Shown here in pieces: positions 19,061-26,263 of a stretch of DNA of 26,263 bases. The DNA comes from Gallionellaceae bacterium (lineage in GTDB: Bacteria > Pseudomonadota > Gammaproteobacteria > Burkholderiales > Gallionellaceae). Both the position numbers and the translations under genes were made by a program. Below the pieces are notes generated by a model. The model was not told the origin of the DNA, searched no databases, and saw nothing but the letters and a program-made list of their open reading frames with translations. The stretch's first letter is position 1; every line of letters starts with the position of its first letter. The stretch lies in assembly GCA_030690855.1 (NCBI GenBank), contig JAUYFR010000300.1, positions 1-26,263 on the forward strand, read 5' to 3'.

Positions 19061-20404
19061 ATGCCTCATCAAAAACTTTGGAATAGCTGCCTTGATTACT
19101 TTAAGACTCAGCTTCCTGCTCAACAATTCAACTCTTGGATTAAGCCCTTAATTGTTGAGGTTAAAGACCAAAAAATTGTAATCGTTACGCCTAATGGATT
19201 TACATTAAACGTTATTCAAGAACGATTTTTACCAGAAATATCTAAGCGTGCCCTTGAGTTTTTTTCAACACCTGTCCATATTGAACTGCGCATAGAAAAA
19301 CAGAGACAAATAGCAATAACTCCCAATAATCCTTCAAGTATTAAAGCTGAAATAAAAACGATAGCAAAAAAAACTTATCAAAACTCAGTCAAGCTAAATT
19401 CATCCTTACTATTCGAAAACTTTGTTACCGGTAAAGCTAACCAGCTTGCCCATGCCGCAGCTATTCAAGTAGCAGACTCACCAGGAACAACTTACAACCC
19501 TTTATTTATTTACGGCGGTGTCGGTTTAGGTAAAACGCACCTATTACAAGCCATCGGTAACCAATTTAAACAAGAAAATAACCAGGCTAAAATTTGCTAT
19601 GTTCACGCAACAAATTACATTTCTGATGTTGTTCGCGCTTTTCAAACTAAACAATTTGATGAATTTAAACAATTCTACAACTCGTTGGATTTGTTATTGA
19701 TTGACGATATTCAATTTATTGCCGATAAACCAGGAACACAACAAGAGTTTTTCTATACGCTTAACTCTTTGATTGATAAGAATAAACAAGTTGTTATTAC
19801 GTGCGATACTTTTCCAAAAGAAATTAATGGGATAGAACCAAGATTAACCTCTCGATTTAGCTGTGGTTTAACGGTAGCTATTGAGCCTCCCGGTTTAGAA
19901 ATGCGTGTTGCTATTCTTTTACAAAAATCTACTCAATCGAAAAATCCTATTGGCGAGGATGTGGCTTTTTTTATTGCCAAACATGTACGATCAAATATTA
20001 GAGAGCTTGAAGGTGCATTAAATAGAATTGAAGCTTTCGCCCGTTTTCATAAACGTCCTATTAATGTTGAATTAGCAAAAGAGGCTCTCAAAGATCTTTT
20101 AGCTGCTCAAAATAAACAAGTATCAATTGAAAATATTCAAAAAACAGTTGCGGACTTTTATCGAATTAAAATAATTGATCTATTATCTAAGAAAAGAACA
20201 AGAATTATTGCAAGGCCTAGACAAATGGCAATGTGTTTAGCAAGAGAATTAACCCAATTAAGCTTGCCGGAAATAGGAAATGCTTTTGGCGGTAGAGATC
20301 ATTCGACCGTTTTACATGCTTGCAAAACAATTGAACAATTAAAAAATACAGATAATTCAATACACTCTGACTTCAATTTACTTAATCAAACCTTAAGGAA
20401 TTAA
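19061..20404 (+). CDS. dnaA: Chromosomal replication initiator DnaA
   Basis: YNPLFIYGGVGLGKTHLL, LLLIDDIQF, NIRELEGAL, GGRDHSTVLHA. Confidence 0.99.
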   Translation: MPHQKLWNSCLDYFKTQLPAQQFNSWIKPLIVEVKDQKIVIVTPNGFTLNVIQERFLPEISKRALEFFSTPVHIELRIEKQRQIAITPNNPSSIKAEIKTIAKKTYQNSVKLNSSLLFENFVTGKANQLAHAAAIQVADSPGTTYNPLFIYGGVGLGKTHLLQAIGNQFKQENNQAKICYVHATNYISDVVRAFQTKQFDEFKQFYNSLDLLLIDDIQFIADKPGTQQEFFYTLNSLIDKNKQVVITCDTFPKEINGIEPRLTSRFSCGLTVAIEPPGLEMRVAILLQKSTQSKNPIGEDVAFFIAKHVRSNIRELEGALNRIEAFARFHKRPINVELAKEALKDLLAAQNKQVSIENIQKTVADFYRIKIIDLLSKKRTRIIARPRQMAMCLARELTQLSLPEIGNAFGGRDHSTVLHACKTIEQLKNTDNSIHSDFNLLNQTLRN

Positions 20405-20599
20405 CTATGTATTTTCCCTTTATAAAATGTTTATAAGTCCATAAATAAAAGAAAACAGAAAAGTTATTCACAATATATAAACAATATAAAACATGAGTTG
20501 TGAACAATATAAAAACAACTTAACTTATTGTTTATAGGTTTTAATTAGAGTTATACATAAAAAAAGATCACATTATTATTGTTATTAAGGATATATAAA
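20405..20599. other. oriC: Probable oriC (dnaA-dnaN spacer)
   Basis: 37/195 G+C (~19%). DnaA-box-like 9-mers: TTATTCACA 20464-72, TGTGAACAA 20499-507, TTATACATA 20551-59, TGTTTATAA 20428-36. Trinucleotide run TTATTATTGTTATTA at 20573-87. Flanked by two parS sites. Confidence 0.75.
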
Positions 20600-21703
20600 A
20601 TGTTTATTGAAAAAATTGATCGAGATTCCATACTCAAACCCTTGCAAACAGTTGTTGGTATTGTTGAAAGAAAACAACCGCTACCAATACTTTCTAATGT
20701 TTTAATAGAAAAAAATGTTGGTACCATTAAATTAGTCGCAACCGACTTAGAGATACAAATTTCCACACAACATCAGTTAGAGGCAGGAGCAGCCATCGGT
20801 TCGGTAACGGTCTCAGCAAAAAAATTACAAGAAATTCTTCGAGTTTTGCCTGATCAAAGCCAAGTATCGCTAGATATTCAAGAAAACAAACTGCTAATCA
20901 AAGCTAATAAAAGTAAATTTAGTTTACAAACATTACCTGCACAAGATTTTCCATTAGTTACAAACTTAATTGAAGGCGCTACTAAAATTGTTTTAAAGCA
21001 AGGGTTACTAAAAAAACTCTTAGCATTAGTTCAATATGCGATGGCGCAACAAGATATTCGTTATTACTTAAATGGTGTTTTATTAGTAATTGAAAATAAC
21101 ATTATTAGACTGATTGCTACGGATGGTCATCGTTTAGCCTATGTCAGCGCAAGTATAGAAAACGAAGGCCCAAAAAAAGAAGTGATTTTGTCTAGAAAAA
21201 CTGTCAATGAATTATCAAAACTTCTTTCTAATAATGAAGACCCGATTGAGCTAGAGTTAGCTGAAAAACAAGTCAGGATTACTTTTGCAGATATTGTATT
21301 AACTTCAAAAGTAATTGATGGTAAGTTTCCAGACTACGAACGAGTGATTCCTAATTATACAAATCATCTACAACTGGATCGATTAACTATTGTGCAAGCC
21401 CTTCAGCGAGCAGCAATTCTATCCAATGAAAAATTTAGGGGCGTGAGATTTGTTCTAACAGAAAAGAATTTACGTATTATCAGTAGCAATAGTGAACAAG
21501 AAGAGGCCCAAGAAGATATTGAAAATGAATATCATGGTCCGGCATTGGATATTGGTTTTAATGTAAATTATTTGCTTGATGGGCTAAACAACACACCAGC
21601 GCAAGAAGTAACATTCTCATTTGGAGATCCGAACAGTAGTATTTTGATTACCGTTCCAGGAGAAGAAGAGTTTAAATATGTAGTCATGCCAATGCGCATT
21701 TAA
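20600..21703 (+). CDS. dnaN: DNA polymerase III beta sliding clamp
   Basis: Start set at ATG 20600 behind an AAGGA SD. PILSNVLI, RYYLNGV, ATDGHRL, GKFPDYERVIP, VVMPMRI. Confidence 0.99.
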   Translation: MFIEKIDRDSILKPLQTVVGIVERKQPLPILSNVLIEKNVGTIKLVATDLEIQISTQHQLEAGAAIGSVTVSAKKLQEILRVLPDQSQVSLDIQENKLLIKANKSKFSLQTLPAQDFPLVTNLIEGATKIVLKQGLLKKLLALVQYAMAQQDIRYYLNGVLLVIENNIIRLIATDGHRLAYVSASIENEGPKKEVILSRKTVNELSKLLSNNEDPIELELAEKQVRITFADIVLTSKVIDGKFPDYERVIPNYTNHLQLDRLTIVQALQRAAILSNEKFRGVRFVLTEKNLRIISSNSEQEEAQEDIENEYHGPALDIGFNVNYLLDGLNNTPAQEVTFSFGDPNSSILITVPGEEEFKYVVMPMRI

Positions 21704-21708
21704 TTACA

Positions 21709-24171
<2,463 letters not shown>

Positions 24172-24241
24172 AGAGCGAGTTGCCTTAACCAGAAAAAAGG
24201 AGTTGTTTGCTGAAAGTTAGTGAGTTACACGGAGAGCTGTT

Positions 24242-24595
24242 ATGCATATTTCAATAATAAAGATATTGGTTTTACTTCTTTTCTTTTTTCTGTCGGGTTG
24301 CGGAACACTCGAAAATAAAACTATCCTCTTGAATGTTGGAGACTCTAAGAAGGCGGTTCTTGATGTTATGGGGACACCAGCAGACCGCCAAATAAGCGGG
24401 CAACAAGAGGCTTGGCAATATTGCGTTTCTGGAGCTGGGTTTGGGTGGAATGACCATAAAATTATTTGGTTTAACGCTGGGCAAGTAACCGGAATTAATT
24501 CTTATAGATCGAGCGTGAGTGGTTGCCAAGGAGGAATTAAACCCGTGCGCTGGGAAAATGCCCCGGATTCTGTTTTGGAAATCAGGCGTCGATGA
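24242..24595 (+). CDS. Small lipoprotein, possibly SmpA/OmlA(BamE)-like fold
   Basis: Hydrophobic signal with LSGC lipobox (Cys20); GDSKKAVLDVMGTP and EAWQY resemble the SmpA_OmlA pattern; GGAGAG SD. Confidence 0.7.
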   Translation: MHISIIKILVLLLFFFLSGCGTLENKTILLNVGDSKKAVLDVMGTPADRQISGQQEAWQYCVSGAGFGWNDHKIIWFNAGQVTGINSYRSSVSGCQGGIKPVRWENAPDSVLEIRRR

Positions 24596-24658
24596 TTCAA
24601 CCCTGTATTTGAGTAGGATGGTTTGCCGTTGGGGAATTGTTCAATTTTAATGTTAGTG
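24595..24658 (+). mobile_element. Degenerate attC-like integron recombination site
   Basis: ATTCAAC (RYYYAAC) - 5 bp - ATTTGAGT - 24 bp - GTTCAAT - 6 bp - GTTAGTG; 64 bp, with the 7-5-8...7-6-7 spacing of known attC sites. Stem pairing is only partial. Confidence 0.55.
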
Positions 24659-24666
24659 AGTACAAC

Positions 24667-25098
24667 ATGACTCTCACCAATGCACATGCCGATCAGATTG
24701 CAACACTATTAAACGAGCGAAACCAGCTTACCCAAAAGCTCACGCGTAAGAGTGTTCTTGACCATGCGGATAGTTATATTTGTCGCTTCTCAGATGCAAA
24801 TGAAGTTGTTGCGTGTGTTCAAGTAAAGAGCGTTCAGTGGTACCAAACTGAAATTCTTCATCTTACTGTGGCCGAATTTCAAACGAGAAAAGGATATGCC
24901 AAATGGTTATTGTGTGAGGCGGAGCGCGTTGCTCGTACAAAAGGCGCTCGTTTGCTCCAATGTACCATTCGCGAAAGCAATATCGGAAGTCGCACGTTGT
25001 TTGAAAGTTTTGGTTTTTTGTACATCAACACATTTAATAACCCGAGCAGCGGGAACAACGTAATGATTTTTCAAAAAGTATTACTCTGTGTTCAATAA
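24667..25098 (+). CDS. GNAT-family N-acetyltransferase
   Basis: Motif A-like HLTVAEFQTRKGYAKWLL and motif B-like ESNIGSRTLFESFGF. Start set at ATG 24667, because the upstream in-frame part lies inside the attC-like site. Confidence 0.85.
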   Translation: MTLTNAHADQIATLLNERNQLTQKLTRKSVLDHADSYICRFSDANEVVACVQVKSVQWYQTEILHLTVAEFQTRKGYAKWLLCEAERVARTKGARLLQCTIRESNIGSRTLFESFGFLYINTFNNPSSGNNVMIFQKVLLCVQ

Positions 25099-25106
25099 TC
25101 TCTGTA

Positions 25107-25150
25107 ACCTAACACGAAAATAGAGCGAAGCGGTCAGGCTCGATTTTTTT
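25107..25150 (+). other. Second attC-like half site or terminator-like hairpin after the GNAT gene
   Basis: ACCTAAC (RYYYAAC) 8 bp after the stop, then AAAATAGAGC/GCTCGATTTT inverted repeat (9/10) with a T7 run. No GTT at the position expected for R'. Confidence 0.45.
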
Positions 25151-25189
25151 AAACTAAGCAGTAAAGTTGCCTTGTAACCCAATAAACAG

Positions 25190-25210
25190 AAGGCCTGCAG
25201 AGCAGGCCTT
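25190..25210. terminator. Perfect 9-bp hairpin between the convergent transcription units
   Basis: AAGGCCTGC-AGA-GCAGGCCTT; followed on the minus strand by CTGTTTATT, so a plausible topA terminator. Confidence 0.55.
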
Positions 25211-25276
25211 GTAAAACGAGCTACAGCCGCACAATATCTATGCGGCAGGGGGGGGGGATTCAAATTAGTCGAAAAC

Positions 25277-26263
25277 CTATTCCTTGGCCTTTGCGGCCTT
25301 TTTAGCTGCCGCTTTCTTGGCGGCGGGTTTTTTCACTGTTTTTTTCTTCGCCGCAACCTTTTTAGTCACCGTTTTCGCGGTCTTTGGCTCAGCTTTGGCT
25401 TTAGGTGTTGCTTTTGTCTTGGTCGTTTTGCTGGTGGCCCTTTTGGCGGCAGGTCTGCGTGAAGGCTTCGTTGATGGACCTTTCGCCACTTTGGCGGCGA
25501 TTAGTTCCAGCGCTTCTTCTAGTGTAATGTCATCCGGCGAAATATCTTTTGGTAGGGTTGCATTAATCTTGCCATGACGTGCGTAAGCGCCGTAACGGCC
25601 GCTACAAATTTCAACGGTCGCTTTGTCCTCTGGGTGGTCGCCTAAGGTACGTAATACGGTTGCTCCGCCGTCTCTGGCTTGAGCCAGCAATTCAACGGCC
25701 CGGTCTAATGCAATATCAAAGATGCTGTCGGTGCGTGGAATAGATTTGAATTTGCCATCGTGACCAATATAAGGGCCAAAGCGTCCGATGTTAACAATGA
25801 CCTTTTTGTTGGTCTCTGGGTGTAAACCGAGATCTTTTGGTAGTGATAACAGTTTTAGCGCATTTTCTAAATCCGCTTGATCAACGGGCATTTCCTTGGG
25901 CCATGACACGCGTTTTGGTTTGGTTTTGGCACCCTCTTCCACTTCGCCCAGCTGGACATAGTGACCGTACGGACCTTTCAGCAGTAATACGGCTTGCTGA
26001 GTTTCGGGATGCACACCCATTTCTACCCGCGCGGCGGCATCGTCTTGGCTTTCGCCGCTGAGGCTGCGTTTGTATTTGCACTCAGGGTAGTTGGTGCAAC
26101 TAATAAAGCTGCCATAACGGCTGAGCTTTTTGGCTAGCGGTTTGCCACAGTCTGGGCACGCCTCATCAATCAATTCCACCGGACGGTCAATGTTGGTTTT
26201 TTCTTTGATGAGCCCGGAAAAACCTTTCCAGAATTCATCCATCACGCCGATCCAGTCGCGCTT
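25277..26263 (-). CDS. topA: DNA topoisomerase I, C-terminal part (5' end outside the window)
   Basis: Frame is open to the right edge (KRDWIGVMDEFWKGF). One C4 Zn ribbon (CPDC...SCTNYPEC), three (L/M)GxHP...G(P/R)(Y/F)GxY repeats and a Lys/Ala-rich tail. Confidence 0.9.
   Translation of the reverse strand, partial: KRDWIGVMDEFWKGFSGLIKEKTNIDRPVELIDEACPDCGKPLAKKLSRYGSFISCTNYPECKYKRSLSGESQDDAAARVEMGVHPETQQAVLLLKGPYGHYVQLGEVEEGAKTKPKRVSWPKEMPVDQADLENALKLLSLPKDLGLHPETNKKVIVNIGRFGPYIGHDGKFKSIPRTDSIFDIALDRAVELLAQARDGGATVLRTLGDHPEDKATVEICSGRYGAYARHGKINATLPKDISPDDITLEEALELIAAKVAKGPSTKPSRRPAAKRATSKTTKTKATPKAKAEPKTAKTVTKKVAAKKKTVKKPAAKKAAAKKAAKAKE

Follow-up and report, generated by a model that had tools for sequence, protein, structure and literature searches.

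A probable pair of former integron cassettes stranded between gyrB and topA in a Gallionellaceae genome

Introduction

The stretch of DNA considered here (“the window”) is contig JAUYFR010000300.1 of the Gallionellaceae bacterium assembly GCA_030690855.1, analyzed over its full length of 26,263 nt; it corresponds to contig C301 of a metagenome-assembled genome (MAG) of 2.02 Mb, 364 contigs and 72% completeness. Two small open reading frames (ORFs), coding for a lipoprotein (ORF1) and a GNAT N-acetyltransferase (ORF2), are situated in it between the convergent genes gyrB and topA. Positions 24216-25135 probably correspond to two former integron cassettes, located outside any integron platform and stranded between these two genes. 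This reading is carried by the spacer separating both ORFs, which keeps the layout of an attC site, and by the occurrence of homologues of both genes as cassettes in arrays; cassette and attC ancestry of the locus is considered highly likely. Genomes, contigs and loci used for comparison are referred to by handles beginning with G, C and L, respectively.

Clusters of attC sites without an integron integrase (IntI), and single sites of this kind, are reportedly distinguished as CALIN and SALIN, in the sense of Cury and colleagues (2016). Clusters of two cassettes are the commonest CALIN size (IntegronFinder 2.0, PMC9024848; bioRxiv 10.1101/2022.09.11.507474). IntI also inserts attC-bearing cassettes at genomic 5'-GWT-3' sites, with an enrichment near oriC (Loot et al., bioRxiv 10.1101/2022.09.11.507474); a sizeable fraction of these genome-inserted cassettes is expressed from resident promoters, and SALINs and two-cassette CALINs have been proposed as natural traces of such genomic insertions (bioRxiv 10.1101/2022.09.11.507474).

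The spacer between the two genes

Several short motifs delimit both genes. GTTAG occurs at 24216-24220 and 24652-24656, each copy inside an identical 10-mer, GTTAGTGAGT, and these 10-mers begin 26 and 15 nt upstream of the ATGs at 24242 (ORF1) and 24667 (ORF2). At the other end of the genes, ATTCAAC (24595-24601) overlaps the TGA stop of ORF1 (24593-24595), and ACCTAAC (25107-25113) is found 8 nt past the ORF2 stop. GTTAG, ATTCAAC and ACCTAAC, together with TGAAAGTTAG, had been picked out in the initial annotation and are in place. The spacer is interpreted as the decayed attC of cassette 1 (24595..24658, + strand), with R'' at 24595-24601, L'' at 24607-24612, L' at 24641-24645 and R' at 24652-24658. 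Its spacing (7/5/L''/loop/L'/6/7) is also found in the genome's genuine attC sites of 63 nt, as the canonical spacing initially proposed had implied. A covariance model, R1, was built from 13 attCs adjoining intI in relatives, and its structure is supported (84% of the cells are paired, and none of 500 shuffles reached the observed covariation); run with its filters off, R1 aligns end to end with exactly 24595-24658 on the + strand. The low-stringency covariance score is 10.1 bits (E 1.5), which does not by itself bear out the expected attC signal; the empirical genome-wide profile test described below does support an attC origin. The boxes ATT(T)GA and TCAAT (24607-24612 with 24641-24645), with one bulged base, correspond to the covarying L helix of real attCs; the L-box pairing claimed in the initial annotation holds in this respect, and fails as a working pairing, the site being non-folding. 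R'' and R' are complementary only at AAC/GTT, and the core GTTAGTG differs from the strict GTTRRRY at its last two positions.

When aligned by eye with the attCs of the genome itself, most mismatches of the spacer are transitions, and for this reason the whole genome was scanned with a purine/pyrimidine profile as well as with a four-letter one, both derived from 12 ungapped 63-nt attCs and applied to ~3.99 million non-array positions. In purine/pyrimidine coding the spacer scores 25.3 and ranks 1 of ~4 million non-array positions (next best, 11.9; genome mean, -57.8; sd, 14.9), and only seven true attCs outscore it. This rank is robust: across three pseudocounts and three training sets the spacer came first, or second with five training sites. 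The four-letter profile places it 22nd to 89th, which is the top 2e-5 at a pre-specified site. As controls, strong/weak coding leaves the spacer at the median, and its rank in keto/amino coding is weak; taken together, the ranks in the four codings form the pattern expected from transitions. Compared with the attC consensus, the spacer shows 27 identities (43%), 23 transitions and 13 transversions, and the transitions, read on the + strand, comprise 14 C>T, 4 G>A, 3 A>G and 2 T>C. On sequence grounds, the spacer is thus interpreted as a transition-decayed attC, which has lost its GC stem and keeps its length, its purine/pyrimidine pattern, the bulged base and both kinds of box (R and L).

Folding of the spacer has disappeared. 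For its bottom strand the folding energy is -1.8 kcal/mol (z +0.85), a value equalled or bettered by 163 of 200 shuffles. When the AAC/GTT pairing is forced, energies of +2.0/+2.5 kcal/mol are obtained, and of the 985 AAC...GTT pairs in the window 99.4% do better; real attCs of relatives reach -13 to -22 kcal/mol. Since the attC bottom-strand hairpin is gone, cassette 1 has to be described as a former rather than a mobile cassette. A functional attC at the spacer was rejected, as no DNA hairpin is formed on either strand. The retention of a + strand RNA hairpin through G-U pairs was also discarded, as the predicted fold (-13.7 kcal/mol) is indistinguishable from shuffles (z -0.11) and its register differs from that of an attC.

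Homologues of both genes in cassette arrays

ORF2 (24667..25098, +) codes for a 143-aa, RimI-like GNAT N-acetyltransferase (PF00583 at 3.4e-12). Its homologue P0125 (76% amino acid identity; locus L069) is found on three metagenome contigs within a run of small co-oriented genes. After it comes an attC (57.3 bits, E 6e-12) that belongs to the type seen at the locus and whose R'' overlaps the P0125 stop; a second attC (52 bits) is situated two genes upstream. The leaders of both genes are nearly the same, GTTAGCGAGCACAAC before the ATG of P0125 vs. GTTAGTGAGTACAAC at ORF2, with 16 of 18 bases shared including the ATG; at each of the two mismatched positions L069 has C where the window has T. 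Orthologues of ORF2 were absent from 40 relatives, where the matches are distant GNAT paralogues only.

ORF1 (24242..24595, +) codes for a 117-aa lipoprotein with the lipobox LSGC and a Shine-Dalgarno sequence, GGAGAG, at 24231-24236. A BamE/OsmE/BLIP-like fold is suggested by a weak Pfam BamE match and by an AlphaFold model (pLDDT 85.7), for which Foldseek retrieved OsmE, BamE and a type VI secretion system immunity protein (E 3e-3 to 1e-2; target-normalised TM 0.5-0.65). More than 120 homologues of ORF1 were found, mostly on short contigs; in fact, homologues of both ORFs are mainly on contigs of 1-2 kb, as is typical of array genes. The homologue in locus L058 (93% amino acid identity) has GTTAG 23 nt upstream of its ATG and TTTACGTTAGG directly after its stop; beyond this, a further small gene and a further attC-like site are found. 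In Vibrio diabolicus, an ORF1 homologue (63% identical) lies between two VCR-type attC repeats, within an array of 12 such repeats. The GNAT gene beside the Vibrio homologue is unrelated to ORF2, and a conserved lipoprotein-GNAT pairing was rejected on this basis. No ORF1 match was obtained among the 40 relatives; neither gene is thus fixed across the genus, the situation that the initial annotation had considered contrary to its proposal, and homologues of both do adjoin attC sites in real arrays, as it had anticipated. Judging from these array cassettes and from the boundary sequence common to them and the locus, both genes are of cassette ancestry.

Two further observations concern these homologues. 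Cassettes elsewhere homologous to the two described here start with GTTAGATTAC and GTTAGCGAGC, and not with the GTTAGTGAGT present at 24216-24225 and 24652-24661. Locus L067 (a contig of GCA_038241165.1, 2016-3833) holds a 78%-identical ORF2 homologue, alone between folB and ppsA, with the boundary ATTAACGAGC where the L069 cassette has GTTAGCGAGC, and with a hairpin after its stop; judged by eye, this gene resembles a further stranded cassette whose core sites have decayed.

The integron of the genome

An integron integrase gene is present on contig C197 (TIGR02249, 444 bits against a curated cut-off of 265), being the only above-cut-off match; 282 aa without a stop are readable, and the N-terminus is cut at the contig end. 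Model R1 recovers seven attCs in the same genome, with scores of 71-81 bits and cassette spacing, on contigs C33 and C331. The genome-wide search for intI and sister attC sites foreseen in the initial annotation has accordingly yielded both, and its description of an integrase-less system is valid for the locus (no intI or intI fragment was detected in the 26-kb window by the TIGR02249 search) and not for the genome. Among the genomes of the genus, 10 of 16 contain IntI, and the integrons of the relatives are on contigs other than those of gyrB-topA; the arrays adjoining intI in five of the relatives (G007, G008, G017, G019, and G023) yield canonical attC repeats.

Boundaries of the insert

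The left junction reads GAAAG|TTAG: the chromosomal flank extends to the G at 24216, and the TTAG of cassette 1 follows. The 5' boundary of cassette 1, GTTAGTGAGT (24216..24225, +), is an R'-type core in which crossover would be expected at G|TT, and its GTTAG is also the boundary of the homologous cassettes in L058 and L069. The left chromosomal flank (24172..24215, +) aligns weakly with G002 and G010 over its first ~30 nt, and profile scans detected no attC-like remnant upstream of 24216. The boundary and leader of cassette 2 (GTTAGTGAGTACAAC ahead of the ATG) occupy 24652..24666 (+).

For the attC of cassette 2, the left half (R''-L''-stem; 25107..25135, +) is recognized by left-half profiles, ranking 227 with four letters and 1540 in purine/pyrimidine coding out of 4.0 million positions. 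Its right half has no attC similarity by profile, and R1 gives no match at this site. A full second attC at 25107-25172 was rejected, because what would be its right half is conserved flank common to relatives with other cargo: positions 25136..25189 (+) align with G012, G002, G007, and G010, and represent the ancestral topA-proximal flank. The decaying two-cassette array of the initial annotation is in this sense upheld for the ancestry of both cassettes, and reduced to the left half for the second attC. As the right half of that attC is missing and conserved flank begins at ~25136, the right junction cannot be read for an insertion mechanism. The insert is also flanked by a direct repeat of 13-15 nt, AGTTGCCTTAACC at 24177-24190 and AGTTGCCTTGTAACC at 25165-25179, i.e., AGTTGCCTT(GT)AACC, which has no counterpart at the gyrB-topA junction of six relatives. 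A target duplication based on this repeat was set aside on account of that absence and of its significance by shuffling, given below.

An assembly error does not explain the gyrB-ORF1 junction. Positions 23700-25153 and 25230-25600 are covered with zero differences by contigs from the likely source run, one piece bridging gyrB into ORF1, and the junction recurs in a freshwater metagenome of another study with 4 differences in 146 nt. Among public data, the locus is best represented in a groundwater metagenome. As regards the likely source run (X1), contig-level figures give a depth of 3.8-5.3 for the insert contigs vs. 8.2-9.4 for the flanks, and one contig matches gyrB to 3 nt past its stop (window 24174) and continues into unrelated sequence; this contig-level depth and the single diverging contig hint at co-occurring junction alleles in the source sample.

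The gyrB-topA junction in relatives

The convergent gyrB/topA pair is conserved across the family and the order, with gaps of 29-191 bp or overlapping ends. As the initial annotation had suggested that sister junctions might be empty or differently filled, this region was compared, and both situations were found: the gap is empty (132-191 bp) in G003, G011, and G023, and measures 794-2229 bp with unrelated cargo in G007, G002, G010, G012, G015, and G014. Being variously filled or empty across relatives, the gyrB-topA gap can be considered a general hotspot for small accessory genes. The cargo includes a TumE toxin with its HVO_A0114 partner (G014), HEPN/DUF4145 (G010), MtlR-like (G002) and DUF2971 (G015) genes. 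Neither the covariance model nor the profile detected any attC in these fills, and their interpretation as a shared attC landing pad was rejected for lack of such remnants. Among the junction fills, only that of the present genome is demonstrably of integron origin, and the two-gene insertion is lineage-specific, given the lack of orthologues in the 40 relatives and the empty gaps in some of them.

Decay of the attC sites

The divergence of ORF2 provides a reference for that of the spacer. Third codon positions of ORF2 and its L069 homologue are 58% identical, with a transition:transversion ratio of 43:17; the window has T where the homologue has C at 20 positions (10 in the opposite sense), and A where the homologue has G at 10 (3 in the opposite sense). 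Both window genes are at 42-43% GC vs. 46-50% in their homologues. The attC fossil (43% identical, 23:13) would fit roughly neutral drift under the same spectrum as ORF2. A targeted hypermutation of attC was also considered and dropped, no special mutator being needed because ORF2 third positions diverge with a like transition bias. Strand-asymmetric mutation tied to replication and transcription is well established, and the C>T bias would fit the double role of the + strand, which serves replication as lagging-strand template and transcription as non-template strand.

Expression and surroundings of the locus

Upstream of the insert, gyrB (809 aa; 21742..24171, +) is identified by NF011501 (1270 bits) and Pfam GyrB domains. 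No promoter-like site is found ahead of either ORF, and no terminator exists in 24172-24241 between gyrB and ORF1, in agreement with the initial claim that gyrB is not followed by one; a GC hairpin with a T-run is present straight after gyrB in G011, G012, G014, and G015. Given the lack of promoter- or terminator-like sites between gyrB and the ORFs, read-through from gyrB into both of them is plausible, and each has its own Shine-Dalgarno sequence. The sole terminator-like element before topA is a GC-rich hairpin at 25190..25210, with a terminator-like match on the - strand and conserved in G007, G002, G010, and G012, which is assigned as the topA terminator and would likely also be the end of the predicted gyrB read-through transcript. 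Beyond it, the 3' part of topA (25277..26263, -; Toprim_C_rpt, 4e-51, and Zn_ribbon_Top1) is convergent with gyrB.

The cumulative GC skew of the window has its turning point at ~20.4-21.0 kb, which places the locus ~3.5 kb from the presumed oriC and co-oriented with replication. The dnaA-dnaN stretch (19200-21600), where the skew turns, has a G+C content of only 28-34%; elsewhere in the window it is 44-51%, and the genome as a whole stands at 48.7%. The DnaA of the window is normal and full-length, with 94% identity to the DnaA of a Gallionellaceae MAG.

A second pair between sdhA and sdhB

A second stranded cassette pair in the same genome splits sdhA from sdhB. Contig C8 (1-1191; L022/L072) starts with the last 23 codons of sdhA, followed by a 128-aa paralogue of ORF1 (49%; 116-502), a 175-aa lipoprotein gene (599-1126) and a decayed attC (1131-1191; 16.4 bits, E 0.03-0.05), which is the best non-array four-letter match in the genome; sdhB starts at 1191, directly after it. 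The sdhA-sdhB gap amounts here to 1116 nt vs. 10-67 nt in six relatives; wider gaps occur in G009 (472 nt) and G006 (1264 nt). A further attC-like sequence, on C104 (3118-3181, -; L087), has a purine/pyrimidine score of 11.9, the best non-array one after the spacer, and a four-letter score of -22.8; it is not claimed as a third relic, being at the top of the noise; the intergenic gap around it measures 318 nt, and no small ORF adjoins it.

Origin of the insert and alternative explanations

The explanation favored here is that IntI placed a circle of one or two cassettes into the chromosome at a G|TT, co-oriented with gyrB, at the position where relatives usually have the gyrB terminator. From the left junction and the genomic context, insertion through IntI at a genomic G|TT (attG-type) may be given roughly even chances, and the cassettes may have arrived in one joint event or in two. 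Outside an array, the attCs would have been free of selection to fold, and would have drifted at about the neutral rate in a transition-biased, AT-ward manner; that of cassette 1 would have kept its length, R and L boxes and purine/pyrimidine pattern while losing the stem, and that of cassette 2 would have kept its left half. Because of this decay the integrase could no longer excise the cassettes, which would now be fixed in the chromosome as genes lacking promoters of their own, presumably expressed from transcripts that run on past gyrB and end at the hairpin shared with topA.

Several points weigh against this account. The spacer does not pass the standard attC criterion, its R1 score being at noise level with two higher matches inside housekeeping genes, and it forms no single-stranded DNA hairpin. 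The purine/pyrimidine coding was chosen after viewing the alignment, a concern which the control codings and the genome-wide null reduce and do not remove. The right junction does not coincide with a G|TT in an intact R', the second attC lacking its right half, and the flanking direct repeat, marginal as it is (p 0.023 by shuffling), would not be expected after an attC x attG event. In this MAG, which is 72% complete, a contig end truncates the integrase gene. Finally, the hotspot holds toxin-antitoxin, HEPN and DUF cargo in relatives; because this cargo has no detectable attC, an IntI-independent route into the gyrB-topA gap exists.

Such a route is the basis of the main competing explanation, which we regard as rather unlikely: a cassette-derived fragment with already decayed attCs (e.g., from the CALIN of another strain) would have entered the gap without integrase, either by homologous recombination via the conserved flanks after transformation or by illegitimate recombination. 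It would account for the non-attC cargo of the same junction in G002, G007, G010, G012, G014, and G015, for the right end of the insert not being at an R' core and for the marginal direct repeat; moreover, the attC decay equals or exceeds the third-position divergence from distant homologues, and is large if the insertion took place after the lineage parted from G007, with which the GyrB C-terminus is 99% identical. However, the left junction falls exactly at G|TTAG as in the homologous cassettes, with no attC remnant upstream, the genome has an IntI and live attCs, a second stranded pair occurs at the unrelated sdhA-sdhB site, and IntI insertion at genomic GWT near oriC has experimental precedent. 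That the locus descends instead from an ancestral gyrB-topA integron, turned into a CALIN through loss of intI, is the classical CALIN explanation, and the variation of cargo by species at this site would suit it; it is nonetheless extremely improbable, as gyrB and topA are convergent with gaps of 29-191 bp or overlaps across family and order, the window contains no intI fragment, the fills of the relatives no attC, and their integrons are on other contigs. Ordinary strain-specific accessory genes with a chance resemblance to attC in AT-rich intergenic DNA would be in line with the R1 E value of 1.5, the better matches inside genes, the lack of a hairpin and a + strand RNA folding no better than shuffled; against it stand the first purine/pyrimidine rank among ~4 million positions with its 13-bit gap, the four-letter top 2e-5 at a pre-specified site, and the common boundary sequence and intact attCs of the homologous cassettes. 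Chance is largely refuted on these grounds, and we consider it very improbable.

Significance

If the integrase-mediated insertion of stranded cassettes proposed above is correct, the locus would offer a natural, datable case of cassettes leaving their array, landing among essential genes near the origin and losing their exit, i.e., integron cargo turned into ordinary chromosomal genes, and would represent a field counterpart of the laboratory finding of IntI genomic insertion. Standard attC detection, which is structure-based, misses such fossils; a purine/pyrimidine profile of the attC family of the host recovers them with a clean genome-wide null, and profiles of this kind may be a practical route to estimate the integron-derived share of the accessory content of the core genome. 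At a more speculative level, stranded cassettes past the reach of covariance models might be common in core operons of integron-bearing bacteria, the present genome, 72% complete, having two such cases (after gyrB and at sdhA-sdhB), and the C>T changes might reflect deamination of the top strand as lagging-strand template; we hold this to be improbable. If true, CALIN/SALIN counts would greatly underestimate the number of genes that core chromosomes receive from integrons, and deamination of the exposed attC top strand would constitute a built-in route to irreversible cassette fixation.

Comparison with known systems

The lineage arrays (C33, C331 and those of the relatives) contain the same attC family as the locus, of the 63-nt type with GCCYAAC and ACGTTAGGC at its opposite ends, as well as the same cassette sizes and an ORF stop at or beside R'', as observed at the locus. 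They differ from it in that their attCs, at ~60% GC, reach folding energies of -13 to -22 kcal/mol, whereas the locus site has 38% GC and does not fold, and in that the locus is flanked by gyrB and topA, with no intI, attI or Pc nearby.

With CALIN and SALIN the locus shares cassette-type ORFs with attC-derived sequence, far from intI and among core genes. On the other hand, a CALIN in the IntegronFinder sense needs at least two attCs passing a covariance model, and the locus provides 10.1 bits with a lineage-specific model plus a half site; it is not a CALIN by the operational definition, since its attCs no longer pass the model, and it is a fossil stage beyond CALIN of a known phenomenon. 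The work on attG-type insertion (Loot et al.) consists of experiments with IntI1-3 and IntIA in E. coli and V. cholerae, unlike the present case, which would be deduced from a natural fossil with a degraded right junction. The likeness to such insertions lies in the left junction at G|TT, the intergenic position near oriC and the co-orientation with a resident transcription unit, from which the insert might be expressed, in a genome that itself encodes an IntI.

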